DNA of 64,000 nt from an uncultured Bacteroidales bacterium (GTDB taxonomy: Bacteria > Bacteroidota > Bacteroidia > Bacteroidales > ML635J-15). Position numbers and translations under genes: made by a program. This document shows positions 5,304 through 57,466 of the stretch, piece by piece. Numbering within the stretch: the first letter of the stretch is position 1; every line of letters begins with the position of its first letter. Where the stretch lies: contig CALDKB010000054.1 in assembly GCA_937899245.1 (NCBI GenBank), forward strand, positions 24,674-88,673, read 5' to 3'. Under the pieces are notes generated by a model, which was not told the origin of the DNA, did no database searches, and was given only the letters and a program-made list of their open reading frames with translations.

Positions 5304-6060
5304 AAGTTTCCCCCCTGAATACTTTTTTTGCTGGGCCTTCAAGCCATATGTTTGTGTATTTGCTGTTTTTCTTTTCAAAGAAAACTTTTAGCATGCCGCC
5401 TTTTGCCTGTAGTGTTATTGGCGATTCGTTTCCTTTTGTCGCATTTATGCAAAGGGCAGATGCTACGGTGCCGGTTCCGCATGCCGAGGTTTCGCCTTCT
5501 ACTCCGCGCTCGTATGTGGCAAGTCTAAAGCCGCCGTTCTGATCAACAAAATTCACATTTGTCCTATTGGGCGCAAAACGCTTGTCGTCGGCAAGTTTAC
5601 GACCTTCGGCTACAATGTCAATCTTGTAGATGTCGTCAACGAATTTAACGAAGTGGGGTACTCCGGTATTTGTCCAAAGTCCATCTTCGAATTTTGATAT
5701 CCCATCTACGTCAATCATCTTGAGCTTCACAGTCGTATCGTCCAGGATTTCTGCTTCGTGGATGCCGTCGTCGGCAATAAAAGTCATTTTGTTGCTGCAA
5801 ATGTGATTGTCGAAAGCATATTTCGCTATGCAGCGTCCACCGTTTCCGCACATGCTTGCCGTATGTCCGTCAGAATTGTAGAATTTCATGGCGAAGTCGT
5901 ATTCATTGCTGCTGTTCACGACGATAAGACCATCTGCTCCTATTCCAAAGCGACGGTCGCACATTTGTTCAATCTGTTCGCTGCTAAGCGCAATGTTACC
6001 GTCGATGTTGTTGATGATAATGAAATCGTTCCCGGCTCCTTGATATTTGTCGAAATTCAT
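5293..6060 (-). CDS. dapF: diaminopimelate epimerase
   Basis: 255 aa. Contains MNFDKYQGAGNDFIIINN and the two catalytic-Cys contexts MCGNGGRC and SACGTG. Confidence 0.9.
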   Translation of the reverse strand: MNFDKYQGAGNDFIIINNIDGNIALSSEQIEQMCDRRFGIGADGLIVVNSSNEYDFAMKFYNSDGHTASMCGNGGRCIAKYAFDNHICSNKMTFIADDGIHEAEILDDTTVKLKMIDVDGISKFEDGLWTNTGVPHFVKFVDDIYKIDIVAEGRKLADDKRFAPNRTNVNFVDQNGGFRLATYERGVEGETSACGTGTVASALCINATKGNESPITLQAKGGMLKVFFEKKNSKYTNIWLEGPAKKVFRGETYGE

Positions 6061-8571: not shown

Positions 8572-8862
8572 GTGCTGTCTATTTCGTTTGGACAAAATTA
8601 TAAATTTAAACATTTGCTTCGTTTATTTTTGTGATAATAGATGTTTTGATGTTTGCGAATTTTAGACAAAGCAATTATATTGTAGTTTTTGAACTTTGTA
8701 AAATTCTGTAAATTAACATGTTGGGGTTGGTGTTGGCGTGTGTGTATAAAAATGATTTTTGACAGGCAGCTAAACGAAAAAAAACTCGTTATAAGATGTG
8801 GAAGTTTAAAATAAAAACAGTAATTTTACGCGAATTTTATATATACTAAAAATAGTATCGAT

Positions 8863-9435
8863 ATGAAAAAGATAGTTGTTTGCGTCTTGTTGGTGATTAT
8901 GGCGGGTCTTCCTGTGTTTTCACAATCGCAACACGTTGAAAATCAGCAGTCGTTGTCGGCGGGAATAGATTCTCTACTCAATGGAATTTCTGCCGTCGGA
9001 ACGGAATTTATATATGACGAGGGAAAGCTGGTGTCTATTCCAAATACCAACATCAAGATTCAGCCACCTGAATATTTCCGCTTTTCGGAATCTATTCCGG
9101 GATTTATTCATGTTGGAACAATGAGCAGCATACAGGTTGAGGAAGTGGTTGGAACTTCGTATGTCATGATTGCTATGGCTATGGATTCTGCGTATTTTGC
9201 ATCTCAAGGTATGAGGTTGATATCGTCGGAGCCGGTTGTGATGCACGATGGAAGTGAAGGCGTGCTCTTTACGGCAGAAATGCGACTGAAAGGATTCTTG
9301 TTTGAAAGACTTATTCTAATGTCCGGTGATTACCATTACACGATGTGGATTAATGCCGGCTATATAAAGCTGTTGAGTTCTCAGTTGAAGGAGGTTGTCC
9401 TTCAAAGCATGTTAACATCTAAAATTTACGAGTAG
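8863..9435 (+). CDS. hypothetical secreted protein
   Basis: 190 aa with the signal peptide MKKIVVCVLLVIMAGLPVFSQ. Its stop lies 3 nt before the start of the giant adhesin, so the two look translationally coupled. I recognise no family. Confidence 0.5.
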   Translation: MKKIVVCVLLVIMAGLPVFSQSQHVENQQSLSAGIDSLLNGISAVGTEFIYDEGKLVSIPNTNIKIQPPEYFRFSESIPGFIHVGTMSSIQVEEVVGTSYVMIAMAMDSAYFASQGMRLISSEPVVMHDGSEGVLFTAEMRLKGFLFERLILMSGDYHYTMWINAGYIKLLSSQLKEVVLQSMLTSKIYE

Positions 9436-9438
9436 AAG

Positions 9439-12400
9439 ATGAAGAGAAAACTATATATACTTGCCGTTTTGTTCTGTGTTCTCGCAGGAGGCGTGTTGGC
9501 GCAGGATGCTCAAAACATACTAAGGCATAACATCAATTATCATGTCGATTCGGTCGATATGTGGGGTGGCGGAGATGCTACTTTTATTGATTTTGATTAT
9601 GATCTTATCGATTTGTGCCTCGGCCCGGGGTGCGGAAATGATCCTAGCATACATCAGGTATTCGGTACCGATGCGGCGGGTATTCATTTCGACTTCGACT
9701 TGTTCTTGTACTTGAAGTCGACGTTCAGCATGCACGGGTTCTCCAGCGGATATGTTGGCGTTAATTATCCGGTTCAGATAACTCTGGATTTCCCTGATGA
9801 TTTGGGCTTCGACCATGGCGAGTGGGTGCCGATTCAGTCGTCGTATACTGTTCAGGATGGTTGGGCTCTTAACACCCATTTCCCGACGGCAGGAACTATC
9901 GCCTTGGACCTCGAATACGGTTTCGGCGCCGACCTCTCTCTTTCTGTTGAGGCTTTCGGCGATGAAGTCGTTCCGCCTATCCACCTGATTCCAGAAATTC
10001 AGTTCCCGGCTAGTCCACAATTCGATACGCCAGTACCTCACGATTCTGTTGCTGTGATTTATCTTAACGCAGGCACAGGCGAGTATGCTTATCCATGGGT
10101 AAATGAAACTACCGGCGTGCCATATATAAATACAGGATTCTTGGGCGATGGCGAAACTTTTGATATCGAAATACCAGACCGCTTCGGAATTGGTCTTACA
10201 GCCGACATAACTATTCCTTATGTGGAAACCGAAGACCGTATTGATGGCCAGTGCCTGTATGCTGAAGGTCAGGACGACTGGTTGTCTTTGCACTGGAACT
10301 TGTTGCAATTTATCAGTTTCATCGGTAACGCTGCCGGCCATCCGGAAGTGTCGGAGATTATTGACATCCTCGAGGGTCAAACTCTTGCTTACCCAATTTA
10401 TGAGGACTATGTAATTACTATCGAATATTATGTCTTGCATGCAATGGCGGAAATGAACATGGCTCTTGTTCAGGAGTTTTCTTTCTGTCCGACAATCGAG
10501 GCTACTCTGCGTTTCCCGATTCCTTTGCCTTATGCCGAAGTTGATGGCAATACTATTGTTCAGCAAGGCGAGTCTGAAAATATTACTTTTACCGTTAACA
10601 ACGATTTGTATATCCAGTATCCTTGTTTCGGATGGGAAACAATGCAGGTTTACGACGTGACTTACAATATCCATAGCGGATTTGAAAACCATACCTATAA
10701 TAATCTCCGTGTCGGATTGGACCTTCAGGTGCTTCACGTACATGTTCAGGTTCCGGGACTTGACAATATTTTCAATTTTGCAACAATGCCGGAAATTAGA
10801 CTTCCTGAAATTGAGGGCGGATATGAAAATGCCGACGATGCTTTGGCTCAAGCTTATGAAATAGAAGGTTTCAATGTTAACCAGTATAAGGAGGGGCCAA
10901 CAACCCGCGAAACAGAAACCCGTGATATAGACTTGTGTATCCCTACCGATTGCGGTGCCTTGATAGATGAGTCGTTCGACCTGTTCGACGTTGACCTTGA
11001 TTTTCTTGGCCTTGAAAGGGAATGGGACTTGCAGTTCCCAGCAAGCCAGTATAATGTTTCTTTCCCGGGCACATGGCTCAACCCACGTCCAGAAATGGAA
11101 ATTGATGTTGTAACACAGAATGTTATCTGCTATGGCGATGATTCTGGTATGATAACCACAACGATTGAAAACGGACTTATGGAATATGAATGGCAGTATT
11201 CTAACGGAGTCGTTAATGTTCATGAAGGTCCGACGGATGAAATTAACGTGGCTGCCGGTTACTACTATATTACCGTTATGAATGAATTTGGTTGCGAGGT
11301 TTATGGCGAAGCTAATATTTTGGAGGCAAATACTCCAATTGTTAGTATGACTCGTTCTGACAATGTTCTTTGCCACGGCGAATCTACTGGTAACTTATAC
11401 GTATCCGTTTATGGCGGTGTTCCACCTTATACATTCGAATGGTCGAATGAAAGCACAGAGCAGAATCCTCAGGGCGTTCCAGCTGGTACTTATACGGTAA
11501 CAATAACTGATGCTGTCGGTTGTGTTCAGGAAAACCAGGCGGTTGTTGCCGAACCTGCTACCGAACTTGAAATTACAAATGCCGAAATTCAGAACATTAC
11601 TTGTTATGGAATGAGCGATGGCCACATTGACTTATATGTTTATGGCGGCACTCCGGCATATACCTATTATTGGTCAAATGGAAGCACGGTACAGGATTTG
11701 TTCAACATTGGCGCCGGATCTTATACGGTTACAATAACTGATGCAAATGGTTGTTCCGTTTCCGATACTTATGTCGTAGTTGGTCCTGAACCGCTTGTAT
11801 TGAACTTGGACGTACATGATGTTCAATGCTATGCAGAAAATACAGGAAGTGTTGATTTGACAGTAACAGGAGGAACGGAACCTTATCAGTTTGCTTGGAG
11901 TACAGGCGAAACAACCGAGGATATTTCAGAACTTTATGCTGGATTTTACATTGTGACTGTTACCGATGCTCATGATTGTGTGGAATACGCAATGGCGGAA
12001 GTTCATCAGCCGGCATTGCCTTTGCATGGCGAGATTGAAACAACCGACGTAAGATGCTACGGAGAGGCAAATGGCGTTTGTAACCTTACTGTTTCTGGTG
12101 GCAATGCTCCGTATTTTTATTCATGGAATACAGGTGCTATTTCTGAAGATATCGACCATCTTGTCCCAGGAACTTATTCTGTCGTAATAAGCGATAGCAA
12201 TGGTTGTGCTGCTTATGATACTGCTGTTATTATTCAGTCTGAATATCCGTTGTCGGGACAAATTTCCGGAACCGATGCTTCTTGCAATGGTGCGTCCGAC
12301 GGAAATGTAATCTTCACCGCCGACGGTGGCTATGAACCATATCATTATGAATGGTCTAATGGAATGTGGTCGCAGAATCTAGTAAATGTTCCGGCAGGAA

Positions 12401-13722
12401 CTTATACCGTTACTGTAACCGATGACAATATGTGCCATAATGAGTTCTCGTATGTCGTTAATGAGCCGGATCCATTTTATATTCAGATGATGGATGATTT
12501 CACGGTATGTTATGGTATGACAGCACAAATCGGTGTCGGAATTGTTTCCGGTGGTGTTCCTCCATATACGGTATTGTGGAGCAATGGCGGCAGTGGTATG
12601 TCTACGGAGGTGTCGCCTCTGGAGACTACAACTTATTACGCTTCTGTTGTTGATGCGGCAAACTGCTCAAGCGCACAGGTCGATGTTACCGTTTCTGTGC
12701 TCGACTCGATTTCGTTGTCTGTTGAACTTTTGTCCGACTCTGTTGTATGTGCAGGAGAGAAGGTGGCCTTTGAAGTTGATGTTAATGGTGGCGGCATTGT
12801 TGACGGTAGCGTATTTGTAAATGGCGAGCGTGTAAAGTTGCCGTACGAACCAACTATCGAGATGGATACGGTATTTACTTTCGTGGCTTACGATAGCTGT
12901 CGCTACGATAGTGTAGTAATACCTATCAATATCCATACGTTTGGCGAGATACCTATTAATATATATGCCGATGTCGAGGAAGGCTGTGCTCCTTTGACCG
13001 TAAACTTTGCTGATAATACGCCATATCAGGGTCAGGCATACTTGTGGAACTTCGACGATGGAGATTTCGAGAACCTGTCGTTCGCTAGAGCTCCAAGCCA
13101 TACATTCTATAATTCTGGAACATATCATGTAAATCTGGAGGTAACTTCTACGGAAGAATGTAGACGTGATACTACAATCGCGATTACCGTATTTGCTATC
13201 CCGGAGGCCGATTTCAGGGTTGATAGGGCAAATGTTTCGCTGGCTAGCCCAATAATTAACTTTACTAATTATTCGCATGGCGGTTTCTGGAATATGTGGA
13301 ACTTCGGCGATAATACTACGTCGTCAGAATCAAGTCCGGTTCATGCATACACAATGCCTGGCAATTATCACGTGGTACTTTCTACAACTTCGTTGTATGG
13401 ATGTGTCGATACGGCAGGCGTAGACATAAACGTAAGCAATGAGCACGCATTGTTTGCTCCAACGGCATTCACACCAAATAATGATGATATAAACGAAACC
13501 TTCCGAGTATTTGGCAATTCAATCGATCCAAATGTATTCTCGATGATTATCTATGACAGATGGGGCGCAACAATCTTCAAGTCGAATAATATCGAGGAAG
13601 AATGGGATGGTACCGATGGCACGCGGCCATGTCCTGAGGGCCTGTATACATGGCGAATCTACTATCAGGATATGTTTGGAATAGAGTACGAAAAGGTCGG
13701 AACGGTAATGCTTATCCGATAA
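9439..13722 (+). CDS. giant cell-surface protein: novel N-terminal region, about 6-7 SprB repeats, PKD domains, and a T9SS type B (gliding-motility CHU_C) C-terminal domain
   Basis: 1427 aa with a signal peptide.
- Repeats of the form C[YH]G..[ST]G...V.GG..PY.[FY].WSNG....L..[LV].AG.Y.VT[IV]TD..GC span roughly nt 11100-12650.
- PKD-like segments read APLTVNFADNT...WNFDDG and WNFGDNT.
- The tail reads FAPTAFTPNNDDINETF...IYDRWG..IF...WDGT. Confidence 0.85.
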   Translation: MKRKLYILAVLFCVLAGGVLAQDAQNILRHNINYHVDSVDMWGGGDATFIDFDYDLIDLCLGPGCGNDPSIHQVFGTDAAGIHFDFDLFLYLKSTFSMHGFSSGYVGVNYPVQITLDFPDDLGFDHGEWVPIQSSYTVQDGWALNTHFPTAGTIALDLEYGFGADLSLSVEAFGDEVVPPIHLIPEIQFPASPQFDTPVPHDSVAVIYLNAGTGEYAYPWVNETTGVPYINTGFLGDGETFDIEIPDRFGIGLTADITIPYVETEDRIDGQCLYAEGQDDWLSLHWNLLQFISFIGNAAGHPEVSEIIDILEGQTLAYPIYEDYVITIEYYVLHAMAEMNMALVQEFSFCPTIEATLRFPIPLPYAEVDGNTIVQQGESENITFTVNNDLYIQYPCFGWETMQVYDVTYNIHSGFENHTYNNLRVGLDLQVLHVHVQVPGLDNIFNFATMPEIRLPEIEGGYENADDALAQAYEIEGFNVNQYKEGPTTRETETRDIDLCIPTDCGALIDESFDLFDVDLDFLGLEREWDLQFPASQYNVSFPGTWLNPRPEMEIDVVTQNVICYGDDSGMITTTIENGLMEYEWQYSNGVVNVHEGPTDEINVAAGYYYITVMNEFGCEVYGEANILEANTPIVSMTRSDNVLCHGESTGNLYVSVYGGVPPYTFEWSNESTEQNPQGVPAGTYTVTITDAVGCVQENQAVVAEPATELEITNAEIQNITCYGMSDGHIDLYVYGGTPAYTYYWSNGSTVQDLFNIGAGSYTVTITDANGCSVSDTYVVVGPEPLVLNLDVHDVQCYAENTGSVDLTVTGGTEPYQFAWSTGETTEDISELYAGFYIVTVTDAHDCVEYAMAEVHQPALPLHGEIETTDVRCYGEANGVCNLTVSGGNAPYFYSWNTGAISEDIDHLVPGTYSVVISDSNGCAAYDTAVIIQSEYPLSGQISGTDASCNGASDGNVIFTADGGYEPYHYEWSNGMWSQNLVNVPAGTYTVTVTDDNMCHNEFSYVVNEPDPFYIQMMDDFTVCYGMTAQIGVGIVSGGVPPYTVLWSNGGSGMSTEVSPLETTTYYASVVDAANCSSAQVDVTVSVLDSISLSVELLSDSVVCAGEKVAFEVDVNGGGIVDGSVFVNGERVKLPYEPTIEMDTVFTFVAYDSCRYDSVVIPINIHTFGEIPINIYADVEEGCAPLTVNFADNTPYQGQAYLWNFDDGDFENLSFARAPSHTFYNSGTYHVNLEVTSTEECRRDTTIAITVFAIPEADFRVDRANVSLASPIINFTNYSHGGFWNMWNFGDNTTSSESSPVHAYTMPGNYHVVLSTTSLYGCVDTAGVDINVSNEHALFAPTAFTPNNDDINETFRVFGNSIDPNVFSMIIYDRWGATIFKSNNIEEEWDGTDGTRPCPEGLYTWRIYYQDMFGIEYEKVGTVMLIR

Positions 13723-16317: not shown

Positions 16318-18426
16318 CTATTTCAAGCCTCTGTTCTTCAGCAGCGGTTCAATTGATGGTTCCTGGCCGCGGAAGCGCTTGTAGAGTATCATTGCGTCTT
16401 CTGTGTTACCATTCTTGAGGACATTGTTGCGGAATGACTCTGCTGTCTTCTTGTCGAAAACGCCATTTTCCTTGAATGCCTCGAAAGCATCGTTGTCGAG
16501 TACTGCAGCCCATGTATATCCATAGTAGCCCGCGCTATATCCGCCCGAGAATACATGCTGGAAATATGTGCTCTTGTAACGAGAGATGATTTCCGGAATC
16601 AAGCCGATTTTTGCCATTTCTGCATCTTCAAAGTCTGGGAGTTTGATTTCGGTAGGTTCGGAAATGTTTGCGTATGCCATATCGAGAAGCGATGCTGCGA
16701 TAAGTTCTGTATTGATGAAGCCCTGTCCGTAAGTCGATGCTGCTTCAATCTTGTTGATTAGGGAGTCTGGAATTGCTTCTCCGGTCTTGTAGTGTTTTGC
16801 ATACATTTTCATAACTTCTGGATATCCAGCCCAATGTTCCATAATTTGTGATGGCAATTCAACAAAGTCGCGAGAAACGCTTGTGCCTGACAACGATTCG
16901 TAACGGCAATCTGTAAGAATGCTATGCAGGGCATGTCCAAATTCGTGGAAAAGGGTAGATGTTTCATCAAAGTTCAACAACGATGGTTTGTCGCCGGTTG
17001 GCTTTGTGAAGTTGAGAACAAGCGATACCAATGGAATAATTCTCTTGCCATCCTTGCTGTACGACTGTTCGCGGAAGTTTGTCATCCAAGCACCGCTGCG
17101 CTTGCTTTCGCGTGGGAAGAAATCCATGTAAAGTATTGCGATTACTTCGTTGTTTTCAACGACTTCGTAAGCAACTGCATCTGGATGGTAAACAGGAATG
17201 TTCTTGTTTTCGCGGAATTCGATGCCGTAAAGTTTGTTTGCAACCATAAATATGGCGTCCTTTACGTTGTCGAGGGAGAAGTACGGACGTATTACGTCGT
17301 CGTTCAAATCGTATTTCTGCTTGCGAAGAGTTTCGCAATAGTAACGCCAGTCGCAAGGTTCAAGCTTGAAGTTTCCGCCTTCAGCGTCAATCATCTTTTG
17401 ATATTCTGCGGCTTCTTCCTTTGCCTTGGCAAGTGCTGGTTCCCAAACTTGCATCAGAAGGTCATCGACAGCTTCCGGAGTTTTTGCCATATTGTCGTCG
17501 AGAACGTATGCTGCGTGCGACTTATATCCAAGAATATTGGCTCTTTCGAGACGAAGGTTTACGATTTGGTTGATTATGTCGTAGTTGTTTGTTTCGCCCG
17601 ATGTGCAACGTGTTGAATATGCTGTCCAAAGTTCCTTGCGAAGTTCGCGGTCCTTGCAGTTCATTAGGAATGGCTCCATGCTTGGAAGGTGGATTGTGAA
17701 AACATATTTGCCTTTTGTGTCGTCAGATTCGTTGCCAAGTTCGAGAGCGGCGGCAAGCTGGTCTTCAGTACATCCTTCGAGGCGAGCAACATCGTCAACA
17801 ACTAGTTTGTAGTCGTTGGTTGCTTTCAGTACATTGTTGCCGAATTTCATTGTCAAAAGCGAAAGCTTTTCGTTGATTTCGCGGAAACGAGCTTGTTTTT
17901 CTTCTGGAACATTTGCACCGCCACGAACAAAACCCTTGTAGGTCTCTTCGAGAAGACGCATCTGGACTGCATCGAGGTTGAGAGATTCGCGCTGGTCGTA
18001 TACTGCTTTAATGCGTTCGAAAAGTTTTGCATTCAAGCTAATATCGTCGCCGTGTTGTGAAAGTTTTGGTAGAATTTCTTCCGAAATGTTTTCCATTTCC
18101 TCAGAATTCATACATTCTGCAAGGTTGAAGAAAATGCCTTCAACGCGAGTAAGCATCGAGCCGCTTTCTTCGAGTGCGATAATCGTGTTTTCAAATGTCG
18201 GTGCTTCTGAGTTGTTGACGATTGCGTCGATTTCTTCTCTTTGCATTTTCATTGCTTCCTCGAATGCTGGAATGTAATGCTCCGTTTTAATTTGATCGAA
18301 TGGCGGAACCTGATATTCGGTCGTCCATTCCTGAAGAAGAGGATTCGTCTGTTCCTTTTCCTTTTTGCAAGAACTTACCATAACTAATAGTGTTAATGCG
18401 GTTAAAATTGTTAGACTTTTTCTCAT
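16318..18426 (-). CDS. dcp: M3-family peptidyl-dipeptidase (Dcp / oligopeptidase A-like) lipoprotein
   Basis: Zinc motif HEFGHALH. The true start is MRKSLTILTALTLLVMVSSCKK (cat at 18424-18426, with a lipobox). The 94-codon upstream extension in the ORF track runs through intergenic repeats and past a -7 box. Confidence 0.85.
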   Translation of the reverse strand: MRKSLTILTALTLLVMVSSCKKEKEQTNPLLQEWTTEYQVPPFDQIKTEHYIPAFEEAMKMQREEIDAIVNNSEAPTFENTIIALEESGSMLTRVEGIFFNLAECMNSEEMENISEEILPKLSQHGDDISLNAKLFERIKAVYDQRESLNLDAVQMRLLEETYKGFVRGGANVPEEKQARFREINEKLSLLTMKFGNNVLKATNDYKLVVDDVARLEGCTEDQLAAALELGNESDDTKGKYVFTIHLPSMEPFLMNCKDRELRKELWTAYSTRCTSGETNNYDIINQIVNLRLERANILGYKSHAAYVLDDNMAKTPEAVDDLLMQVWEPALAKAKEEAAEYQKMIDAEGGNFKLEPCDWRYYCETLRKQKYDLNDDVIRPYFSLDNVKDAIFMVANKLYGIEFRENKNIPVYHPDAVAYEVVENNEVIAILYMDFFPRESKRSGAWMTNFREQSYSKDGKRIIPLVSLVLNFTKPTGDKPSLLNFDETSTLFHEFGHALHSILTDCRYESLSGTSVSRDFVELPSQIMEHWAGYPEVMKMYAKHYKTGEAIPDSLINKIEAASTYGQGFINTELIAASLLDMAYANISEPTEIKLPDFEDAEMAKIGLIPEIISRYKSTYFQHVFSGGYSAGYYGYTWAAVLDNDAFEAFKENGVFDKKTAESFRNNVLKNGNTEDAMILYKRFRGQEPSIEPLLKNRGLK

Positions 18427-18448
18427 TGTTATAAAATTTATTGATGTA

Positions 18449-18456
18449 CAAAGGTA
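18449..18456 (-). promoter_or_regulatory. Bacteroidota -7 box (TAnnTTTG) for dcp
   Basis: The minus strand reads tacctttg, 22 nt upstream of the ATG at 18426. Confidence 0.45.
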
Positions 18457-18550
18457 GGAAGAATGTTTAAAAGTTTGAGGTTTAAATGTTGAATTGTTTG
18501 AACAGTTTTGAACAGCAAAACAATTTGTACTTCCTCTGGCATCATTACCA

Positions 18551-18627
18551 GTGTTCCCTGAACGTCTTGTACTGAGCGTAGTCGACGTAATTCGAATGGG
18601 GTTGGTCGAAGCTATGGTGATGAAAAT
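18551..18627. repeat. REP-like intergenic element, copy 1
   Basis: gtgttccctgaacgtcttgtactgagcgtagtcgacgtaattcg...ggtcgaagc recurs 403 nt downstream with few mismatches over the first ~62 nt. Confidence 0.7.
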
Positions 18628-18953
18628 TCTTTTGGCTGTCGAAGATATGGTTGTTTTTCCGCTCGAGCCGCGTGGCTTTCCCTTATTTGTCAGCAAAAAA
18701 GGAAACAAAAAACTGTTGTCGCCGCACCTGCTTTGCTAAAAATCGACTTTACTTTGCTAACCGCAGGAACTTGACTTCGCAAGCTCCGTCTTCGGACAGC
18801 CTGCGCTTTTACGCTTCGTAAATCCGATTTTCTTTACGCTCACCAGCTGATGCGACCAGTCAAGGTATCGCAAAGCGATGGGTTTAAAACATGGCTAAAG
18901 CCATGGGTGCAAGGTGGTTCTGTCGGCCCTTTGACATGTCAGTAGCATTATCT

Positions 18954-19030
18954 GTGTTCCCTAAACGTCTTGTACTGAGCATAGTCGACGTAAGTCGGAG
19001 GGAGTTGGTCGAAGCCGCGATGACAATATT
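18954..19030. repeat. REP-like intergenic element, copy 2
   Basis: gtgttccctaaacgtcttgtactgagcatagtcgacgtaagtcg...ggtcgaagc is a direct repeat of 18551-18627. Confidence 0.7.
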
Positions 19031-19052: not shown

Positions 19053-19715
19053 TTAGAACATTTCTATAGCATATTCCACCGATTTGTTCAGCAGTTTGTT
19101 GAATTCGTATGTCTTGCGGAAATCTTCGATTGCGTGTTCGAGAAGATGTTCGTCGAGCAGATATTTTTCGTCGACTTCCTTTTCAATAAGGAAACTTTTC
19201 AGGCGATAGTAATTTGCAAATTCATCGTCCGGGTTGAAGCCGTTCGGGATTTTTTTCAGCGCATCGTCCCAACTTAGCGAAAATCCTTTTGCCTTTTTTA
19301 TTGCGGCTTCAAATCCATTGCCGTTAAGCATTATTTCTTCTCTGACACTTTTTGTGAAACGAGGTTCGGGCATCCAAAGTCCAGTGCAGAGGAAATACTT
19401 AATATTTGGCTCGATGTGAAGATAATAGCCGGCAAACCCGCTTTTTTTCCCGTGAGGGCATATGAATGTCCCGATATGCTGTTTGTATGGAGTCTTGTCG
19501 GGCGAGAAACGCAAATCGCGGTAAATCCTATATGTGCAGTCCTTCACTTTTAGATCTTCTACCGATTTGTCGAATTTTGCAATTCCGGCGATAAGTTTTT
19601 CGGAAAAGTCGTTGTGAAAGGCAAGCATTTCCTTGTATTGTGCCTTGTGAGCATCAAACCACGGCTTGTTGTTGTTCTGCTGCAGTTCGCTGAAAAAGTC
19701 GATAACGCGTTTCAT
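19053..19715 (-). CDS. DUF2461 (TIGR02453) family protein
   Basis: Contains FFSELQQNNNKPWFDAHKAQY and YRIYRDLRFSPDKTPYK. The start is taken at MKRVIDFF (19715). The ORF-track TTG start at 19739 lies inside a -7 box. Confidence 0.8.
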   Translation of the reverse strand: MKRVIDFFSELQQNNNKPWFDAHKAQYKEMLAFHNDFSEKLIAGIAKFDKSVEDLKVKDCTYRIYRDLRFSPDKTPYKQHIGTFICPHGKKSGFAGYYLHIEPNIKYFLCTGLWMPEPRFTKSVREEIMLNGNGFEAAIKKAKGFSLSWDDALKKIPNGFNPDDEFANYYRLKSFLIEKEVDEKYLLDEHLLEHAIEDFRKTYEFNKLLNKSVEYAIEMF

Positions 19716-19736
19716 TTGTTTGTGAATTATGATGTA

Positions 19737-19744
19737 CAAAGATA
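19737..19744 (-). promoter_or_regulatory. Bacteroidota -7 box (TAnnTTTG) for the DUF2461 gene
   Basis: The minus strand reads tatctttg, 21 nt upstream of the ATG at 19715. Confidence 0.45.
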
Positions 19745-37275: not shown

Positions 37276-37542
37276 GAGTTTAATGTGTCAACGAGAATGT
37301 TGTGTATTTTTTCTCCGCTTTCTAAAATCGTAGAATGCTAGGTGGCTTTATGTTTAATATTATCACATCCTTATCATCTATATTCACCAACTGTTTATAG
37401 GTTTGAATATATTTGCCACGGTCCTCTTCGGCAAGAATAATATCCTGTGTTTTATACACTTCGTATTCGTAAATATAGTTTATGAAAATGCATTGCACAG
37501 CTACAAAAAATCGCTGCAGCTGTAGTCTGCGGCGGAAAAACT

Positions 37543-38991
37543 TTACTTGTCAATCTTGTATATGCAGTTTATCTTTATGCTGGTGTCCAATATCTTTTTT
37601 TCAACAAAGAATACCTTTGGAGAGTTGAACATAAGTTCATATTTCTTCTTGTGCAGATTTTTATTTGATAAACTCAACGCACCAAGATTTTCTTCGACAT
37701 GGACTACCATTATTTTCCCATACTTGCTTCCAAACCTGCAATGGCTGCAAGCCCCATAGTCGGCAAACATTATGTAATCAAAGTCCTTGTAGTCATATTG
37801 AATGCCAGTAGTGTCAAATATTGTTTCCATCGACGAAATAGGGGGATACTTTTCTCGTCTAAGCATTTCTGCATCATTAGGATCGTAATCTTTGATAGTA
37901 GATGCCGTGTAGTAATAATGGTATATGCCATCGTTCCCAAGCGAATCATCGATTGTTTCGTAGCTTGTCCCGTTGAAAAGAATTTGCTGCGACGACATGA
38001 GGTCATTATTGCCGTTTATAACCCCATTAATATTCTTGAACTTTTTCGACTTTACGGAATATACAAAGTCGATATGTCTTCCTGTAAACTCAGCCTCGTC
38101 TATGTGAACCATTATGTACAGCAAGTCGTTGCCTATGAAAGCAATCTTATCTATTTTGGGTTTGATAAAAATCTTATATTTATCCATAATCTGCAGATTA
38201 AGATATGCTTTCCCATAATTTTCGAGCAGAACCTTATCTGGCAATATGGAATCTAAAACTTGTTCAGTTAGTAGGATAGGCGGATAATCAATATTTACTG
38301 TATCAATAATATTAAGTTTACCATTCATTATATACACTTCTCCCTTTAATGGGTTCGACACAGCAATATAATCATCAGACTTGGCTATCATATTAATGCC
38401 ATAATGAGATAACAGTATGCCTTTGCCAATGTCAAACTTAACAGATTTTTCTGCCATACGGGTCTTCATGTTGAATATCCTTACTGTGATATTGTCATAC
38501 GGCTGTCCTTTACGGCTGTTGTTGTATGTGTTGGCGAGTAACACCTTATCGTTTGACTTTCCATCGAGTCTCGAGATATGGTTATATGTGTCCTTGAGTC
38601 TAATTTTTTTCTTAATCTTAAGTTCGTCCTCTTTTTTTTGTGTTCTATATATGAAAAACTGTGACATTATGAGGATTTCGCCATCAGGCATTTCCGCGCC
38701 ATAATACGAATCTTCATAAGCGCTTAACCCTTTTCTTGGCCTTTTGAAATATAGTTTTATGTCCTTTAATGTACTATCAATAACAAGCAAAAGTACTGTA
38801 TCTTCTGTTTTCTCTGAATACTGAAGCCTCATTGGAACAATTGTCTTGCTCGAGCTCTGAAATCTATTGTAATAATCATAATATTCAACACTTTGCCACT
38901 TTTCAAGTTCCAATTTGGGAGAAACTGAGAATGTTTGAGACAATAAATCCAAACAAATAAAAACAAATAAAAATAGTGCAGATGCCTTCAT
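37543..38991 (-). CDS. hypothetical secreted protein with a C-terminal CxxC motif (cassette B large protein)
   Basis: 482 aa with the signal peptide MKASALFLFVFICLDLLSQ. Tyr/Asn/Lys-rich and AT-rich in codon usage. GACSHC lies at nt 37738-37749 in the context FDYIMFADYGACSHCRF, paralleling SDYCIVTLYFQAGCVSCRM in the 564-aa neighbour. I recognise no family with certainty. Confidence 0.55.
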   Translation of the reverse strand: MKASALFLFVFICLDLLSQTFSVSPKLELEKWQSVEYYDYYNRFQSSSKTIVPMRLQYSEKTEDTVLLLVIDSTLKDIKLYFKRPRKGLSAYEDSYYGAEMPDGEILIMSQFFIYRTQKKEDELKIKKKIRLKDTYNHISRLDGKSNDKVLLANTYNNSRKGQPYDNITVRIFNMKTRMAEKSVKFDIGKGILLSHYGINMIAKSDDYIAVSNPLKGEVYIMNGKLNIIDTVNIDYPPILLTEQVLDSILPDKVLLENYGKAYLNLQIMDKYKIFIKPKIDKIAFIGNDLLYIMVHIDEAEFTGRHIDFVYSVKSKKFKNINGVINGNNDLMSSQQILFNGTSYETIDDSLGNDGIYHYYYTASTIKDYDPNDAEMLRREKYPPISSMETIFDTTGIQYDYKDFDYIMFADYGACSHCRFGSKYGKIMVVHVEENLGALSLSNKNLHKKKYELMFNSPKVFFVEKKILDTSIKINCIYKIDK

Positions 38992-39006
38992 TGTTAATTA
39001 TTTTAA

Positions 39007-39030
39007 TTGGAGTGCCATTGGGCACTCCAA
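39007..39030 (-). other. perfect 10-bp GC-rich hairpin between the small and large genes of cassette B
   Basis: ttggagtgcc-attg-ggcactccaa. It starts 8 nt after the small-gene stop and ends 16 nt before the ATG of the large gene. Confidence 0.6.
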
Positions 39031-39037
39031 TAATTAT

Positions 39038-39461
39038 CTACTTTTTAAAGAAAGCTGTTGCATTATACTCAACACCTTTTACTTCTGAACTGGCTTTATG
39101 GTAATCATTAAGTTCTTCATCATATACAAGTCTTGCATTCTTATAATAAATAGTTGCATCATTGTATTGTAGTGTTCCTGTTGTCATGTTATGCGTCTCA
39201 AGGTTCTCTTTAATTACATCTTCAACATAGTTCCATTCAAAACCAACAGTTCCTACTTTGGGGCAAGGTTCATTTCCTGGATCAAGGCACTTTTGTTCGG
39301 TAAGAATTCCGTCCTTATAATGTTGTATTATTTTGTCATAAGTTACACATTTCTGTTTTTTATTCCATTTGCCACCAGACTAAACTACTGTTAAAGGAGG
39401 AATGCCAGCAGATGCTACAACGTACATTAAAAAGCACAATGAATAACAATATTTTCTTCAT
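39038..39461 (-). pseudogene. small secreted protein gene (cassette B) disrupted by a frameshift and an in-frame TAG
   Basis: My own translation:
- The ATG at 39461 gives MKKILLFIVLF, then runs out of frame.
- The next frame reads LMYVVASAGIPPLTVV-TAG(39380-39382)-SGGKWNKKQKCVTYDKIIQHYKDGILTEQKCLDPGNEPCPKVGTVGFEWNY...ATAFFKK, with the stop at 39038-39040.
- Removing one T from the T5 run (39429-39433) restores a clean signal peptide. Confidence 0.5.
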
Positions 39462-39487
39462 TTTATTAAATATATTTAATTATTAAT

Positions 39488-39742
39488 ATGGGATAATTTA
39501 TTTCACAACTGCAACCTATCCCACAGTCGGTTGCAATCATTGCTGTATCCACTACACTAGGGATACATTTTTCCGCATATTTTGCCCTCATATTTTATTA
39601 TAAAATTTATAATTTGTGAGGGCAAACCTATCCGCAATGAAAGGATACTTCATGTAAAATTGACCTATATATATTCATATATAAACTTTTCATATTGTCG
39701 CTTAATAAATTTATGCTACAAGTTTAAGCAAACAAATTGAAA
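39488..39742 (-). repeat. conserved promoter/leader element, copy B
   Basis: By manual alignment it is near-identical to 42064-42314 at an offset of 2573 nt, with about 5 mismatches across the ~240 nt core from 39501. Confidence 0.9.
39706..39713 (-). promoter_or_regulatory. candidate -7 box (TAAATTTA) with TTTG 19 nt upstream, copy B
   Basis: TTTG (39733-39736), 19 nt, then TAAATTTA. One mismatch to TAnnTTTG. An alternative exact TAGGTTTG lies at 39623-39630. Confidence 0.3.
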
Positions 39743-39788
39743 AAAGCAAAATTATTTTTAACAACCGGCAATTTTATCCATATACAAG

Positions 39789-39817
39789 CAACGGCCACTC
39801 AATTGCAGCCGTTGCAG
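39789..39817. other. conserved hairpin ending cassette A
   Basis: gcaacggcc-actcaatt-gcagccgttgc is homologous to 37247-37275. Confidence 0.5.
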
Positions 39818-39921
39818 TTTGTTATTTAGCAAAAACTCCCTAATAATTCGGAACTACAATCACATCGCCATAGTCGTCGAGAACGTACCTTGTGCGTTCG
39901 GTTCTCAAGTACATATTTTTT

Positions 39922-41616
39922 TTAATATATCTCCATCCGCAGTCCACAAGCATCAATCATGGTAGGTATTAAAGCGTCCTCAATATCTTGTGCATTATAC
40001 ACAGAGTCGAGTTCAACCTTGCCGCCCCTTACTATAGTCAGGCGCGGATTTACAAATGGTGAATTCATAGGAAACGAGGACACAATTGCTTCATCATCAA
40101 CGATAACATTATTAAACTTATCCAACCTCAGGTCATGGTCATTTAACTCATTGTCAATACGCGACTTGTAGCCTGTCAGAATAAGATACAAGGGCCTTTG
40201 TGATAAAATCTCCTGGTTTGCAGCTATTAATTCCAACACGGACATCCTACACGACACGCAACCTGCCTGGAAATACAATGTTACTATGCAATAGTCCGAT
40301 TCGTGATCAGGCACATTCCTATCAAAATAATTTATCAACGGATCTTGTCCATCAGTATAATACTGCGAAACTTTTTGTTCCTTATCGTTTCTAAAACCGT
40401 CAATCACGTAGCGCAAACTATCCACAGAAGTATTATGTCCAGACTTTTTTTGCTTTCGATACACATTTATGCGAATGGTATCCTGCGATACCGAACATGA
40501 GATTCGCCTACCATCGACCATTGACATAGAGACAAATGGCTTTACTGTTTCTCCAATATAATTGAAATCCCTATCGGCCATAACGACAGAGCAATACGTT
40601 TTTTCCATGCCGTTTAACCATATTGACGAATAATACATTCCATCAACCGAATCATAAACAATATTTCCATAACACGCAACCATGGCATCGGAAACATCAG
40701 TTTTATATTTTAGCGGAGGGATGGTATCAACCAGCTTTGACTTTAACGTATGTGGAATTAACTTGTCGTTTTTGTAATCCCACTCGAACACATCTGCCGA
40801 ATATGGGAACCTTATCACAGGCATACCATCAGGCGAAATGCAGAAATTGACATGATTGTGATGCCCGCCTTCCAGCACTGGATAATACATTTTATTCTTT
40901 AGGTACGGAAGTTTCTGCCTTGTGAAATAATACTTTTCGGTATTCAAATCATAATAGGCCAAGAACGGCTTCGAATTTTCAATCGAATCACAATTATTAT
41001 AGGAATATCGGCGAGGATAAAGAAAAACTATATTTCCGGCGCGTTTCATTTCACCGTCCAAAAAAGTATATGGCGGCAGCACGTCCGCTTCTGTCAGATC
41101 CAAACCATCGAAGTTTGACTTTTCGCAATTAAAATGATAGTGCTTTTTCACATTTCCCTCATAATCAACGAGCATAAATCTCAACGTGTCGCACGTAGCA
41201 TCATATGGCAGCTCCGTTACCTTGCATTCTCTATTGCTACAATTATGCACTTGCATATACGAATAATATGGTGCGTCATACAGAACCAATATGCTATCCT
41301 TGTTTATATACTCAAAAGTGCATAACGGCCGGTCAGCCAACAAGTTAATCTCATGATATGGTTCTTTCTTTTCAATATCGAAAAAAGTCAGCTTGTTGTT
41401 TTCCACGTATGCTATAAGCGTTTCAACACCATCTATGATGCAATACCGGAACTTGGGAATATATAATATTTTGTTCTGGATTATTGAATCATCAAGCGGA
41501 ATGTTTATGGTTCCTTCTTTATTAAAATCCCAATAGTACTCGTCGTTGCGACAACACGAACACAACATGCTAACTGAGAAAAGAAAAATTGCAGTTTTCA
41601 ACAAAAAATTACTCAT
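39922..41616 (-). CDS. hypothetical lipoprotein with a C-terminal thioredoxin-like CxxC domain (cassette A large protein)
   Basis: 564 aa with a lipobox-like SMLCSCC. The N-terminal ~430 aa is a beta-rich Tyr/Asp/Asn region, possibly propeller-like (inference only). The C-terminal ~130 aa fits a TlpA/thioredoxin pattern: IVTLYFQAGCVSC (nt 40249-40260) ...VIVDDEAIVSSFPMNSPFVNPRLTIVRGGKV. Confidence 0.6.
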   Translation of the reverse strand: MSNFLLKTAIFLFSVSMLCSCCRNDEYYWDFNKEGTINIPLDDSIIQNKILYIPKFRYCIIDGVETLIAYVENNKLTFFDIEKKEPYHEINLLADRPLCTFEYINKDSILVLYDAPYYSYMQVHNCSNRECKVTELPYDATCDTLRFMLVDYEGNVKKHYHFNCEKSNFDGLDLTEADVLPPYTFLDGEMKRAGNIVFLYPRRYSYNNCDSIENSKPFLAYYDLNTEKYYFTRQKLPYLKNKMYYPVLEGGHHNHVNFCISPDGMPVIRFPYSADVFEWDYKNDKLIPHTLKSKLVDTIPPLKYKTDVSDAMVACYGNIVYDSVDGMYYSSIWLNGMEKTYCSVVMADRDFNYIGETVKPFVSMSMVDGRRISCSVSQDTIRINVYRKQKKSGHNTSVDSLRYVIDGFRNDKEQKVSQYYTDGQDPLINYFDRNVPDHESDYCIVTLYFQAGCVSCRMSVLELIAANQEILSQRPLYLILTGYKSRIDNELNDHDLRLDKFNNVIVDDEAIVSSFPMNSPFVNPRLTIVRGGKVELDSVYNAQDIEDALIPTMIDACGLRMEIY

Positions 41617-41637
41617 AAAATAAACTATTAACGTTAC

Positions 41638-42033
41638 TTAATCCATAATGTGAACTTGCTGAACTGCAATTAAATTGCAATTTTTATCATAATACATCTT
41701 TGTGTAACAGTTACGCACTGATAAGTCCGTAAGGTTACACCAACTGCCAACGACAACGCCATCTTCATTTTTAATTTCATGCCATGTGCCCCAAAGCACC
41801 TCGTCTTCACATTTCTTTTTGCTTCTTAATGTAACTTCAAATAAGGTTTCGTTTTCATTGTTAGCGTTTCTGTATAAAGAGCCACAATTTCCATCTTCAT
41901 CACAATAATTAGAATCAACAAGAACCCACATGGGAGCGACAAATTTAGAGATTTTCCCATCTTCCTTTTCGCAAGAAGCGAATATACATACACTTGCCAT
42001 TAATACGGCTATAATTAAAACTAATTTGTTCAT
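41638..42033 (-). CDS. small Cys-rich lipoprotein (cassette A small protein)
   Basis: 131 aa. The signal plus lipobox reads LMASVCIFASC. The mature part carries six Cys. The stop lies 21 nt upstream of the large-gene ATG. Confidence 0.6.
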   Translation of the reverse strand: MNKLVLIIAVLMASVCIFASCEKEDGKISKFVAPMWVLVDSNYCDEDGNCGSLYRNANNENETLFEVTLRSKKKCEDEVLWGTWHEIKNEDGVVVGSWCNLTDLSVRNCYTKMYYDKNCNLIAVQQVHIMD

Positions 42034-42063
42034 TTCTGTAAATTTTATTTGTTGTTATTTTCT

Positions 42064-42314
42064 TGGGATTTTGTTTCACAACTGCAACCTATCCCACAGT
42101 CGGTTGCAATCATTGCTGTATCCACTACACTAGGGATACATTTTTCCGCATATTTTGCCCTCATATTTTATTATAAAATTTATAATTTGTGAGGGCAAAC
42201 CTATCCGCAATGAAAGGATACTTCATGTAAAATTGACCTATATATATTCATATACAAACTGCTCATATCGTCGCTTAATAAATTTATGCTACAAGTTTAA
42301 GCAAACAAATTGGA
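42064..42314 (-). repeat. conserved promoter/leader element, copy A
   Basis: See copy B. It contains four inverted repeats at 42083-42108, 42118-42139, 42154-42199 and 42202-42220. Confidence 0.9.
42279..42286 (-). promoter_or_regulatory. candidate -7 box (TAAATTTA) with TTTG 19 nt upstream, copy A
   Basis: TTTG (42306-42309), 19 nt, then TAAATTTA. An alternative exact TAGGTTTG lies at 42196-42203. Confidence 0.3.
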
Positions 42315-42487
42315 ACAAACAAGAGATTTTTTGCAAAAAATGCCATGCGGAAAATTTATGCGGCGTCATTTTATTGAGAGTCTACCGAGAAAAAAGTTTT
42401 AGTCAAAAAATACCATCAAATAACTGTTGCATTTTTTCGTATTTTAAATTCTTTGACTACCTTTGTCCTGCTTTTTTTCGACAGAAA

Positions 42488-55521: not shown

Positions 55522-56592
55522 TCATTCAATAATGCTTTCGTTGTTGTCCGAATGCTTGGCCTTGTTGCTAATTACAAGTTCGTTGTTGGCGTTTGCGTAG
55601 CAATACACGCATAGGTGCCGGCAGGTGTTGTACATGCCGATGTCTTTGCTTATCATGCATCCGCAGGCCTTGCGTTGACCTTTGTCCTTTAGCTTTTGCT
55701 CGCTTAGTGGCGGTAGCGAAAAGTCGCTGGCGAAAAGGGAACTTTTTTCAGGCAGCTTGCCAAAATGCAGATAATACAGTAGATCTTTGTCGTCGTTCCA
55801 CAGGTTTTTTATAAGTTCAGGATCGATGCATCTGTTGTGCTCTATGCCATATTTTGCGAGGTCTATCGGCTCTCCGCATGTTGCAAGCTTGAGTTCCCAG
55901 CCGTCCGAACTCCAGCGTTCTCGGCATTTTGCAAGTCCATCGGCGATTTCGTTCATCTGTGTTTCGGAAAATTCACAGTTCGCAATATTTTCCTTGTCGA
56001 AACTATTCGTCTCTTTTATTAGATTGTTCTGAACTTTTTTGTAGCAGTTGATGTCGATGAAGCTAAATACAAGTTTGTCGGTGCATCCTTTAATCTGGTT
56101 TCCAGTTTTCCATATTTTCTTCAGTAGGTCGCGAGGAGATAGTTCGGGCGTAATTATAAGAGGGTCGAAGCGCCAAATGATTCGTTCCTTACCAATTCTT
56201 TCGGACAATTCCTTGAAAGTTGCGATACGTTCTGACAGCTTCGGCACATTGGGTTCGAATCTTTCTTCGTCGTAATCGTTCATTGTGAATTGAAAGTAGT
56301 AGTGTATTCCCCGTTCGTCAAGTTCGTGTAGGTATGGCATAAGTGGACGCGGGTTTTTTGTCCAGAAAACAACAACTTTGCACTTGTCGAAGCAAACTTT
56401 TGTGGGCTTCTGGTTGAAAGGATTATACCAGATGCAGTATCCTGCTTTAAGCCGGTTGATAAACCATTTTGCGTAAAATGCAGGAATGTCTGTCGAACGT
56501 GAGGCTGAAATTATAACTGGTGATGTGGTGTTGATTTCTAAAGTTTTGTTCATAGTGTTTCCCTTCATTTTGGGGTTAGTCAAGAAGTTCAT
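55522..56592 (-). CDS. DUF1848-family protein (Cys-cluster, radical-SAM-like)
   Basis: Contains ISASRSTDIPAFYAKWFINRLKAGY and the C-terminal CGCMISKDIGMYNTCRHLCVYCYAN. The likely real start is MNKTLEI at 56553. It overlaps or abuts the upstream FGase-like gene. Confidence 0.7.
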   Translation of the reverse strand: MNFLTNPKMKGNTMNKTLEINTTSPVIISASRSTDIPAFYAKWFINRLKAGYCIWYNPFNQKPTKVCFDKCKVVVFWTKNPRPLMPYLHELDERGIHYYFQFTMNDYDEERFEPNVPKLSERIATFKELSERIGKERIIWRFDPLIITPELSPRDLLKKIWKTGNQIKGCTDKLVFSFIDINCYKKVQNNLIKETNSFDKENIANCEFSETQMNEIADGLAKCRERWSSDGWELKLATCGEPIDLAKYGIEHNRCIDPELIKNLWNDDKDLLYYLHFGKLPEKSSLFASDFSLPPLSEQKLKDKGQRKACGCMISKDIGMYNTCRHLCVYCYANANNELVISNKAKHSDNNESIIE

Positions 56593-57277
56593 GGTATATG
56601 TCTTCCATGATTTCAGATATTTTCAATGATTTTCTATCGGTACGCAATTGCATTGTGTTTTCGTTTAAATATGCCTTTTTGTTCACTTCAACCATTAGTG
56701 AATGGTAAGAGAATTCGCATAGTGGTGATATTGAATTGGAATATGGATTGTTGATCCCGACTTTATATCCATGTTTTTCAAATTTGTTGTAGACCATGTC
56801 AACAATGTTGTCGCCAGGGTATGACCAGTCTTTGTTGAACCCTATGCAAATGTCCGCCTCGCTTATATTGCTGGGGAATGAGTGGCAATCGATTATGATG
56901 GAATCGGCAGACAACGTTTTTATAAGTTTGTCTTGGTGTTGTTTCCATATTCCTAGCAATGTTTTTTTTACTGAAGTCGGTACTTCTCGATGAAACCCTG
57001 CAAAGTCGCTGTATATTATTCCTTGTCCGATTTTTTCCATTGGATCGTCCCACAGGCGTTCTGCATCAACAATGAACCGCGAATATGGGAATCGTACGAC
57101 CTTAAGGTTTGAAACAGAGTTGAATGCAAACACAAAGTCGGTGTACCAGTCGGTTAGCTTGATTACGGATTCGTTGATAAATTTTGGGTTGTTTGGCCAG
57201 AAACTAAGATTTTTGTCGGCAATTCCTTCTATTGAGGAATGAGGTACGTGAAGTACAATATATTTAATGTTGTTCAT
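56576..57277 (-). CDS. N-formylglutamate amidohydrolase (FGase, PF05013)-like protein
   Basis: 233 aa. Contains YIVLHVPHSS..IP, FVDAERL and IIIDCHSF, consistent with the metal-dependent FGase fold. Confidence 0.6.
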   Translation of the reverse strand: MNNIKYIVLHVPHSSIEGIADKNLSFWPNNPKFINESVIKLTDWYTDFVFAFNSVSNLKVVRFPYSRFIVDAERLWDDPMEKIGQGIIYSDFAGFHREVPTSVKKTLLGIWKQHQDKLIKTLSADSIIIDCHSFPSNISEADICIGFNKDWSYPGDNIVDMVYNKFEKHGYKVGINNPYSNSISPLCEFSYHSLMVEVNKKAYLNENTMQLRTDRKSLKISEIMEDIYHELLD

Positions 57278-57466
57278 ATCGTTATGTTTTTTGTTTCAAT
57301 AAACACTCATCGTAAAAACCACCGTGGCATAACAACTCGGTTGGTGCACAATTGTGCTCTTGATGGATGTTGCAAAGATACGAAAGATTTCGTGTTATTT
57401 TTTGATTTGGCAGAATTTTTCGAAACAGGTTGCTTGTGTGGATATTTCATTGTACCTTTACAAAAA

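Follow-up and report, generated by a model that had tools for sequence, protein, structure and literature searches.

Analysis of a 64,000-nucleotide stretch of DNA from an uncultured Bacteroidales bacterium (contig CALDKB010000054.1; the whole stretch is referred to as the window) indicated that two adjacent two-gene cassettes, A and B, are each headed by a non-coding leader and that the two leaders are nearly identical. All features of the locus are encoded on the minus strand, and their order along the direction of transcription is leader B, small gene B, large gene B, a terminator-like hairpin, leader A, small gene A and large gene A. Leader A (39462-39759) and leader B (42034-42332) extend from a promoter-like region to the base preceding the ATG of small gene A and small gene B, respectively, and their cores are located at 39501-39740 and 42074-42313.

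The repeated leader and its two cassettes

Alignment with MAFFT and a repeat finder delimited a direct repeat of 263 nt with 95% identity (39497-39759 and 42070-42332), and these were the only two copies that the repeat finder detected in the window. An ungapped count, in agreement with MAFFT, revealed five mismatches and no indel over the 240 nt of the core (97.9% identity), the number that an earlier note made from the sequence alone had estimated. The mismatches are located, in copy A numbering, at 39682, 39688, 39689, 39696 and 39740, that is, in the cluster (39682-39696) and the single distal position which that note had described, and all 177 nucleotides of the segment 39501-39677 are identical between the copies. 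The blastn E value is about 1e-121, far beyond chance. On the 5' side the similarity fades over about 20 nt upstream of 39740 with no sharp stop. In both copies the repeat stops about 40 nt short of the ATG of the small gene, and the A/B identity ends with the 3' arm of a hairpin (H5) described below.

The proteins encoded downstream are unlike each other, which also agrees with the earlier note. BLASTP detected no similarity between the two small proteins (E 2.2) or between the large proteins of cassettes A (482 aa) and B (564 aa; best E 0.5), and profile-profile comparison of the large proteins with hhalign aligned only the neighbourhood of the CxxC motif (E 0.022, probability 2%). The same note had named an assembly artefact as a possible origin of the two copies. 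Logan contig L005 runs from the 3' part of leader B through cassette B into the 5' part of leader A with 99.3% identity to the window, and leader A is joined to cassette A in contigs L007-L009 and L011. Since these junctions recur in independent Logan contigs from several samples, the two-copy layout is not an artefact of assembly.

Small gene B (41638-42033) encodes a 131-aa Cys-rich lipoprotein of a family that was also found in the relative loci L002, L003, L012 and L018. Large gene B (39922-41616) encodes a 564-aa lipoprotein with a Pfam match to DUF4221. In its structure model, a beta-propeller (residues 27-392) is followed by a beta-alpha-beta-alpha-beta-beta-alpha domain with the CxxC motif at the start of its first helix, and this C-terminal domain is read as a predicted thioredoxin-like topology. 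The terminator-like hairpin (39788-39815) lies between the end of cassette B and leader A and separates two transcription units. Small gene A (39038-39461), which encodes a 141-aa secreted protein in other strains, is a pseudogene in the window, in which two nucleotides are deleted near 39440 and a TAG stop stands at 39382-39380. Its open reading frame (ORF) of 141 aa is intact on Logan contigs L009 and L011, and this sequence also occurs in L007 and L008, which derive from other samples. Large gene A (37543-38991) encodes a 482-aa protein that carries a signal peptide and two motifs, NSP and the C-terminal GACSHCR, and the structure model of this protein was too poor to interpret (mean predicted local distance difference test score 44). 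The C-terminal CxxC domains gave no Pfam match. Homologs of the two large proteins are rare, with 14 and 6 matches among 5.8 billion proteins, and no mention of DUF4221 was found in the open literature.

Leader B sits in a divergent intergenic region adjoining mlaE, which together with an ATP-binding cassette transporter ATPase gene flanks the locus on one side; a mannose-1-phosphate guanylyltransferase gene, a glycosyltransferase gene and cutC flank it on the other. The G+C content of the cassette region (37500-42400) is about 27-42% compared with about 36-50% in the flanking housekeeping genes, which is consistent with accessory or exchanged DNA. In the relative loci L002, L013 and L014, DUF4221 cassettes were found amid DUF3298 proteins and toxin-antitoxin-like pairs of the AbiEi/AbiEii and HEPN/nucleotidyltransferase types, which suggests that the DUF4221 neighbourhood of these relatives is a variable accessory island.

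Conservation, predicted folding and candidate promoters of the leader

On contig L016, an ortholog with 70% identity to the 482-aa protein was found together with a diverged leader (blastn 70% identity over 209 nt, E 6e-13). A degenerate pattern derived from the blocks common to the window and L016 was scanned in metagenomes and yielded four further loci, L018-L021, all of which belong to the L016 clade. Between the window and these five loci a core of 150 nt is 70-74% identical (blastn E 6e-13 to 2e-24). The blocks that are invariant between the two clades reach 18 nt and comprise GCGGATAGGTTTGCCCTC, ATATGAGGGCAAAATATG, CCGAYTRTGGGATAGG (variously TGGGATAGG) and ATCCCA, the last of which forms a conserved island in an otherwise diverged spacer, and the distance between the element and the ATG is constant throughout. 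The orthologous coding gene next to the leader shows 74% nucleotide and 69.5% amino-acid identity between the clades. Since the leader core is as conserved as this coding gene, where unconstrained intergenic DNA should be unrecognisable, the core is evidently under selection.

Neither an nhmmer profile nor a covariance model detected further copies in the window or among the fetched relative loci L002, L003, L012-L015 and L017. A scan of a genome collection with GCGGATAGGTTTGCCCTCAC, the last three bases of which are not conserved in the second clade, returned only a chance match in a Pseudomonadales metagenome-assembled genome, and no matches were obtained in the first metagenome scan, in three viral scans or by blastn against plasmid and phage sequences. 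Rfam 15 gave no match on either copy at gathering thresholds and just chance-level matches at E <= 10, and the same was observed for the L016 leader. The element is restricted to this lineage and is not represented in Rfam.

At its 5' edge, the cross-species core has the invariant block GCGGATAGGTTTG (39623-39635; copy B 42196-42208), which holds TAGGTTTG and the first GGATAGG motif. Three hairpins are predicted within the core, and they were found at equivalent positions when each clade was folded alone (z-scores -2.8 to -4.5). The first, H3 (39581-39626; copy B 42154-42199), has a base of 10 pairs formed by UUUGCCCUCA and UGAGGGCAAA and an A/U-rich top; the L016 clade has the same base with one A-U pair changed to G.U, and its loop spans 23 nt instead of the 28 nt of the window, with a top that still pairs. 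H4 (39545-39566; copy B 42118-42139) reads GUAUCC...GGAUAC in the window and GUAUUUUC...GAAAAUGC in the L016 clade, so that two C-G pairs are replaced by U-A, and one U-A pair has changed to U.G independently in L005 and in L016/L019. H5 (39509-39536; copy B 42082-42109) consists of the arms UUGCAACC and GGUUGCAG and the loop GACUGUGGGAUA, which contains the second GGAUAGG motif. It is partly compensated in the L016 clade, with one compensatory A-U to G-C change and one broken pair.

The (U)AUCCCA island (39489-39495; copy B 42064-42069) is located in the diverged spacer 27-34 nt before the AUG and does not differ between any of the variants. Its complement is the H5 loop sequence UGGGAU(A), with a pairing of 6 bp in all variants and of 9 bp in window copy A and in L018; this loop-spacer pairing is sterically compatible with an H-type pseudoknot and could possibly form one, or an alternative pairing. 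On an alignment of the two clades fitted with a covariance model, 89.6% of the pairing cells could pair, compared with 29-52% when the partners were slid. Three pair changes are double-sided and several others convert A-U or G-C to G.U; as G.U replacements work only on the sense strand, they mildly favour RNA over DNA. As far as can be judged from sequence, these data are consistent with RNA structure in the leader core of both clades.

Two candidate promoters were recognised within the leader. P1 (39706-39736; copy B 42279-42309) was obtained by a regular-expression scan against the Bacteroidetes -33/-7 consensus (-7 TAnnTTTG, with the -33 TTTG about 19-21 nt upstream) and comprises TTTG (39736-39733), a 19-nt spacer and TAAATTTA (39713-39706). 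The latter matches five of the six specified -7 positions and lies at about -252/-253 in both window copies, so that P1 resembles a sigma-ABfr-type promoter as a consensus match only. A TTG-N20-TAATATTG arrangement is present at -244 to -246 in L016, L018 and L019, a distance from the ATG similar to that of P1. The second candidate, P2, has no -33 box and consists of TAGGTTTG, which matches the -7 consensus perfectly and is found between -167 and -170 in each of the five leaders. A strong terminator was found upstream of the leader in L016. Since a terminator precedes this leader and a terminator-like hairpin precedes leader A of the window, a promoter must lie within the element; P1 is favoured, as an RNA hairpin accounts best for the H3 palindrome. 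In L002 and L012, two relatives from which the leader is missing, ordinary -7 boxes were found at -51 to -58, which argues that the long leader is a module added in this sub-lineage.

P2 together with an operator acting at the DNA level is the main rival to the P1 reading. According to this alternative, which we regard as unlikely, transcription would depend on TAGGTTTG as the true -7 box, and a transcription factor co-regulating the cassettes would bind to the inverted repeat TTTGCCCTC...GAGGGCAAA and perhaps also to the two GGATAGG direct repeats, which are separated by 112 bp. The perfect consensus and constant position of the box agree with it, as do the start of the cross-clade core exactly at TAGGTTTG and the invariant arms of the palindrome. 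Against these stand the absence of a -33 box from P2 and of a regulator gene from the nearby genes scanned, together with the spacing of the half-sites, which differs by 5 bp between the clades (28 versus 23 nt) and would be awkward for a dimer and harmless for a hairpin. In addition, one arm change produces G.U on the sense strand and C.A on the other, and H4 and H5 further downstream also covary.

Two further observations concern upstream regions. The -33 region of P1, CAATTTGTTTGCTTAAAC (39721-39740), and the promoter of the leaderless A-type gene of L016 (about 3870-3925) have the 10-mer TTGCTTAAAC in common; the 5' part of the window leader may be derived from the L016 A-type promoter, or the match may be due to chance. 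In L012, the 645 nt upstream of the small-lipoprotein gene (8855-9500) contain many degenerate short repeats (CGTTAAYCC, CCTTACWGGCGTTA) with no likeness to the leader.

Gene conversion between the leaders and probable exchange of cargo

A sister strain, represented by sample SRR21151010, allowed both leaders to be compared between close relatives, leader A being found on L011 and leader B at positions 1-110 of L005. Leader B of the sister strain and leader B of the window differ at 12 of 110 columns (nine substitutions and a 3-nt deletion), compared with 9 of the 2431 remaining aligned columns of L005 (Fisher p = 5e-12), while leader A of the sister strain is identical to that of the window throughout the conversion tract, bar one spacer base. 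The 3' 177 nt of leaders A and B are identical in the window lineage and about 89% identical in the sister strain. The paralogs thus possess a block of identity with diverged borders, which is polymorphic between close strains with near-identical flanks, as expected of gene conversion. As shown by the strain comparison, a recent A-to-B conversion tract of at least 177 nt replaced an older leader B that was about 89% identical.

Of the four single-base differences of the L005 leader B in the H4-H5 region, two match the state of the L016 clade; since they share the second-clade state, this leader looks older and leader B of the window appears to have been overwritten from A. The cluster of A/B mismatches at 39682-39696 appears to lie outside the conversion tract, and the point at which L005 ends is consistent with the presence of the same differences in the sister strain. 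The near-identity of leaders A and B in the window is recent conversion layered on purifying selection of the 150-nt core, and not selection alone.

It could be argued that the leader is a neutral by-product, a recently duplicated or converted stretch in which the similarity reflects recombination history only. Conversion is directly supported, only two copies were seen and the identity fades gradually at the edges, all of which fit this explanation. Nevertheless we consider it quite improbable, given that the core retains 70-74% identity and 18-nt invariant blocks in a second clade in which the spacer has diverged and the coding gene itself reaches just 74%, that the hairpins were kept through compensatory and wobble changes, and that the distance to the ATG is fixed in every case. 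Conversion of a leader that is itself under selection accounts for both sets of observations.

Alignment of L018 and L016 revealed 92% identity over 1005 columns, which run from the GAF-domain gene upstream, through the intergenic region and the leader, to about 60 nt into the small gene; beyond this point the two loci are unrelated. In L018 the leader is followed by genes for a small B-family lipoprotein (131 aa) and a DUF4221-like protein; in L016 and L019-L021 the products are a lipoprotein of 164 aa, a protein of 180 aa and a B-type protein that is truncated. L016 also has the A-type large gene, which is lacking in L019 and L020, and this difference is bounded by a 42-nt direct repeat with a strong terminator hairpin (L016:3823-3864 and 5424-5465). 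The same 42 nt follow the 482-aa gene in the window (37504-37545). The spacer and the start of cassette A of the window are closer to L018 and L003 than the leaders are to each other, which argues that leaders and cargo have mosaic histories. The homology breakpoints vary, falling for example at the 3' arm of H5 or inside the signal peptide, and this variability fits homologous recombination, not a site-specific system. There is accordingly indirect evidence that the leader, being conserved and repeated, is also a homology anchor for the exchange of cargo between strains.

Elsewhere in the window, a SAM-I/IV riboswitch was identified on the minus strand at 57277-57371 (53.2 bits, above the gathering score), directly 5' of the minus-strand ORF 56576-57277. 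On the plus strand, five copies of a 42-nt unit with a spacing of about 228 nt (11482-12435) were found inside the ORF 9439-13722, which encodes 1427 aa; they look like a repeated protein domain, as in large surface proteins. A 70-nt direct repeat (18543-18612 and 18946-19015; 89% identity, copies 403 nt apart) has its first copy inside the minus-strand ORF 16318-18708 and its second in the gap before the ORF 19053-19739.

Interpretation of the leader and its relation to known systems

For a non-coding element better conserved than its cargo, the earlier note had proposed selection on a cis-acting element, recent gene conversion or use as a cassette-exchange site. Conversion, selection and exchange all contribute: the core, its invariant blocks and its compensated hairpins are kept in a second clade, leader B is excessively divergent in SRR21151010 (12/110 versus 9/2431 columns, p = 5e-12), and L018 and L016 carry different cargo behind the same upstream gene and leader. 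In our judgement, it is fairly likely that the repeat serves a lineage-specific family of cassettes, each with two genes, as their common promoter and long 5' leader, and that it undergoes conversion and is a point of cargo exchange.

By its sequence the element looks functional as a promoter-leader module, and a regulatory mechanism may be proposed. In each cassette, a gene for a small secreted protein or lipoprotein precedes one for a large lipoprotein that has a C-terminal CxxC motif. Transcription from P1 (TTTG-N19-TAAATTTA) would yield a 5' untranslated region (UTR) of about 240 nt, the 3' 150 nt of which are the conserved core. This core would present H3 with its G+C-rich base, H4, H5, the two GGAUAGG motifs and the AUCCCA sequence, which lies just ahead of the translation start region and could pair with UGGGAU in the loop of H5. 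The most likely role would be a common post-initiation control of all cassettes, with translation or elongation gated either by a factor acting in trans or by the RNA switching between alternative folds.

Several points weigh against the explanation as a whole. The direction of conversion is taken from one sister strain. Pairwise BLAST similarity between the clades starts only at GCGGATAGG, and the 5' 100 nt of the leader, including P1, are conserved in position and not demonstrably homologous in sequence. As there are two clades only, each compensatory change is a single evolutionary event and the covariation is statistically weak; the partners of the possible pseudoknot are invariant and the base of H3 nearly so, and neither provides covariation. 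Finally, if P2 were the real promoter, the 5' arm of H3 would be untranscribed and the palindrome would act at the DNA level.

A more specific proposal, which we put forward tentatively and hold to be rather doubtful, is that the 150-nt core would be an undescribed structured regulatory RNA that senses a factor or ligand and thereby controls whether the interchangeable lipoprotein cassettes are expressed, in which H3 would occlude an upstream AUG and H4 and H5 would be accompanied by an H-type pseudoknot between UGGGAUA and UAUCCCA about 30 nt before the start codon; the leader would at the same time be a portable homology handle for swapping cassettes between strains, which would amount to a cassette system that operates by homologous recombination and requires no integrase.

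The leaders of Bacteroides capsular polysaccharide operons (PMC11685472) are likewise non-coding, 100-250 nt long and located between a sigma-ABfr-type promoter and the first gene; they occur as paralogous copies within a genome, form RNA hairpins and allow regulation after initiation. Here, on the other hand, there is no UpxY/UpxZ gene, no YGCGNAGCR sequence and no invertible promoter. Capsule leaders are locus-specific and mutually different and precede a long biosynthetic operon, whereas the two leaders described here are near-identical and each precede a two-gene lipoprotein cassette. The earlier note had likened the repeat to the promoter and 5' UTR regions of Bacteroides surface loci; capsule leaders are the closest functional analogue, but the features that define opsX/UpxY control are absent.

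An ops/opsX-style mechanism, in which a NusG paralog or antitermination factor would be recruited through GCGGATAGG, likened to the Escherichia coli ops element GCGGTAGC, is very unlikely. The motif has a superficial resemblance, and Bacteroides capsule operons do carry opsX sites with pause hairpins in their leaders (PMC11685472). Compared with the sequences given there, however, the YGCGNAGCR consensus with its GCG..AGC stem is absent, and the motif precedes H3, whereas the opsX pause hairpin precedes its site. No UpxY/UpxZ-like gene and no NusG/KOW domain were found among the cassette genes with Pfam and NCBIfam, and the operons are merely about 2.2 kb long.

The FopS/GibS small RNAs (PMC11697453) resemble the leader in being conserved, non-coding and multicopy in Bacteroidales and in having canonical promoters; FopS RNAs are independent transcripts of 65-70 nt with a single-stranded seed and a terminator hairpin and have been deposited in Rfam (PMC11697453). 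The element described here, in contrast, is about 240 nt long, is fixed directly upstream of coding genes and has neither a terminator of its own nor an Rfam match. Integron cassettes are similar in their variable tandem cargo and in the repeated hairpin-forming element at cassette boundaries. They differ in that here no integrase was found among the genes scanned, R'/R'' core sites are absent, every cassette has the repeat, with its promoter-like boxes, on its 5' side while none follows the last one, and the breakpoints vary. In variable surface-lipoprotein gene families that gene conversion maintains, for example those of the vsp/vlp type in Mycoplasma, a highly conserved promoter, 5' UTR and sometimes signal peptide head divergent proteins, and tandem paralogs are homogenised by recombination. 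Unlike these families, the present locus has no evident device for phase variation such as a homopolymer tract or invertase, only two copies were seen, and the conserved part stops before the coding region.

A mobile element, such as a miniature inverted-repeat transposable element (MITE) or a remnant of an insertion sequence (IS), or a site-specific recombination site (invertible promoter or attC-like) is suggested by a repeat that contains a palindrome, lies at cassette boundaries and is followed by cargo varying between strains. We give this explanation hardly any weight. The earlier note had recognised that a known IS or MITE would undo its interpretation; no terminal inverted repeats or target-site duplications common to the two copies were found, and the edges are fuzzy. 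Neither a recombinase nor an integrase is encoded among the genes scanned on either side, the last cassette is not followed by a copy, plasmid, phage and viral collections gave no matches, and the homology breakpoints are variable. An invertible promoter was also considered and rejected: the only strong inverted repeat is internal (H3), and no recombinase domain was found among the flanking genes scanned. The same applies to an integron attC site, as on inspection the arms of H3 and H5 do not fit RYYYAAC / GTTRRRY, no copy follows cassette A and no integrase was found among the scanned genes.

Equally improbable is a small Cys-rich peptide (MRAKYAEKCIPSVVDTAMIATDCGIGCSCE...) encoded by the minus-strand ORFs 39466-39591 and 42045-42164. 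Both copies have an ORF of 39-41 codons, which the 3-nt indel leaves in frame in L005 and which ends 2-9 nt before the main ATG. In the L016 clade, however, the ORF is only 16 codons long (MRAKYEGLVFSNIENA); moreover, all amino-acid positions at which L005 differs are replacements, the stop codons fall beyond the conserved repeat, and among 5.8 billion proteins only a same-species copy was found. A short regulatory upstream ORF with a common AUG is possible.

DUF4221-type beta-propeller lipoproteins and their small partners are abundant and variable in Bacteroidales and have no assigned function, and a dedicated leader conserved across species would offer a concrete way to study when these lipoproteins are expressed. 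The comparison of strains also documents, base by base, the homogenisation of a regulatory region by gene conversion at a locus where cargo is being replaced or, as in small gene A, inactivated. Should the reading at the RNA level be true, the leader would be a lineage-specific cis-regulatory RNA in a phylum in which post-transcriptional control is poorly charted.

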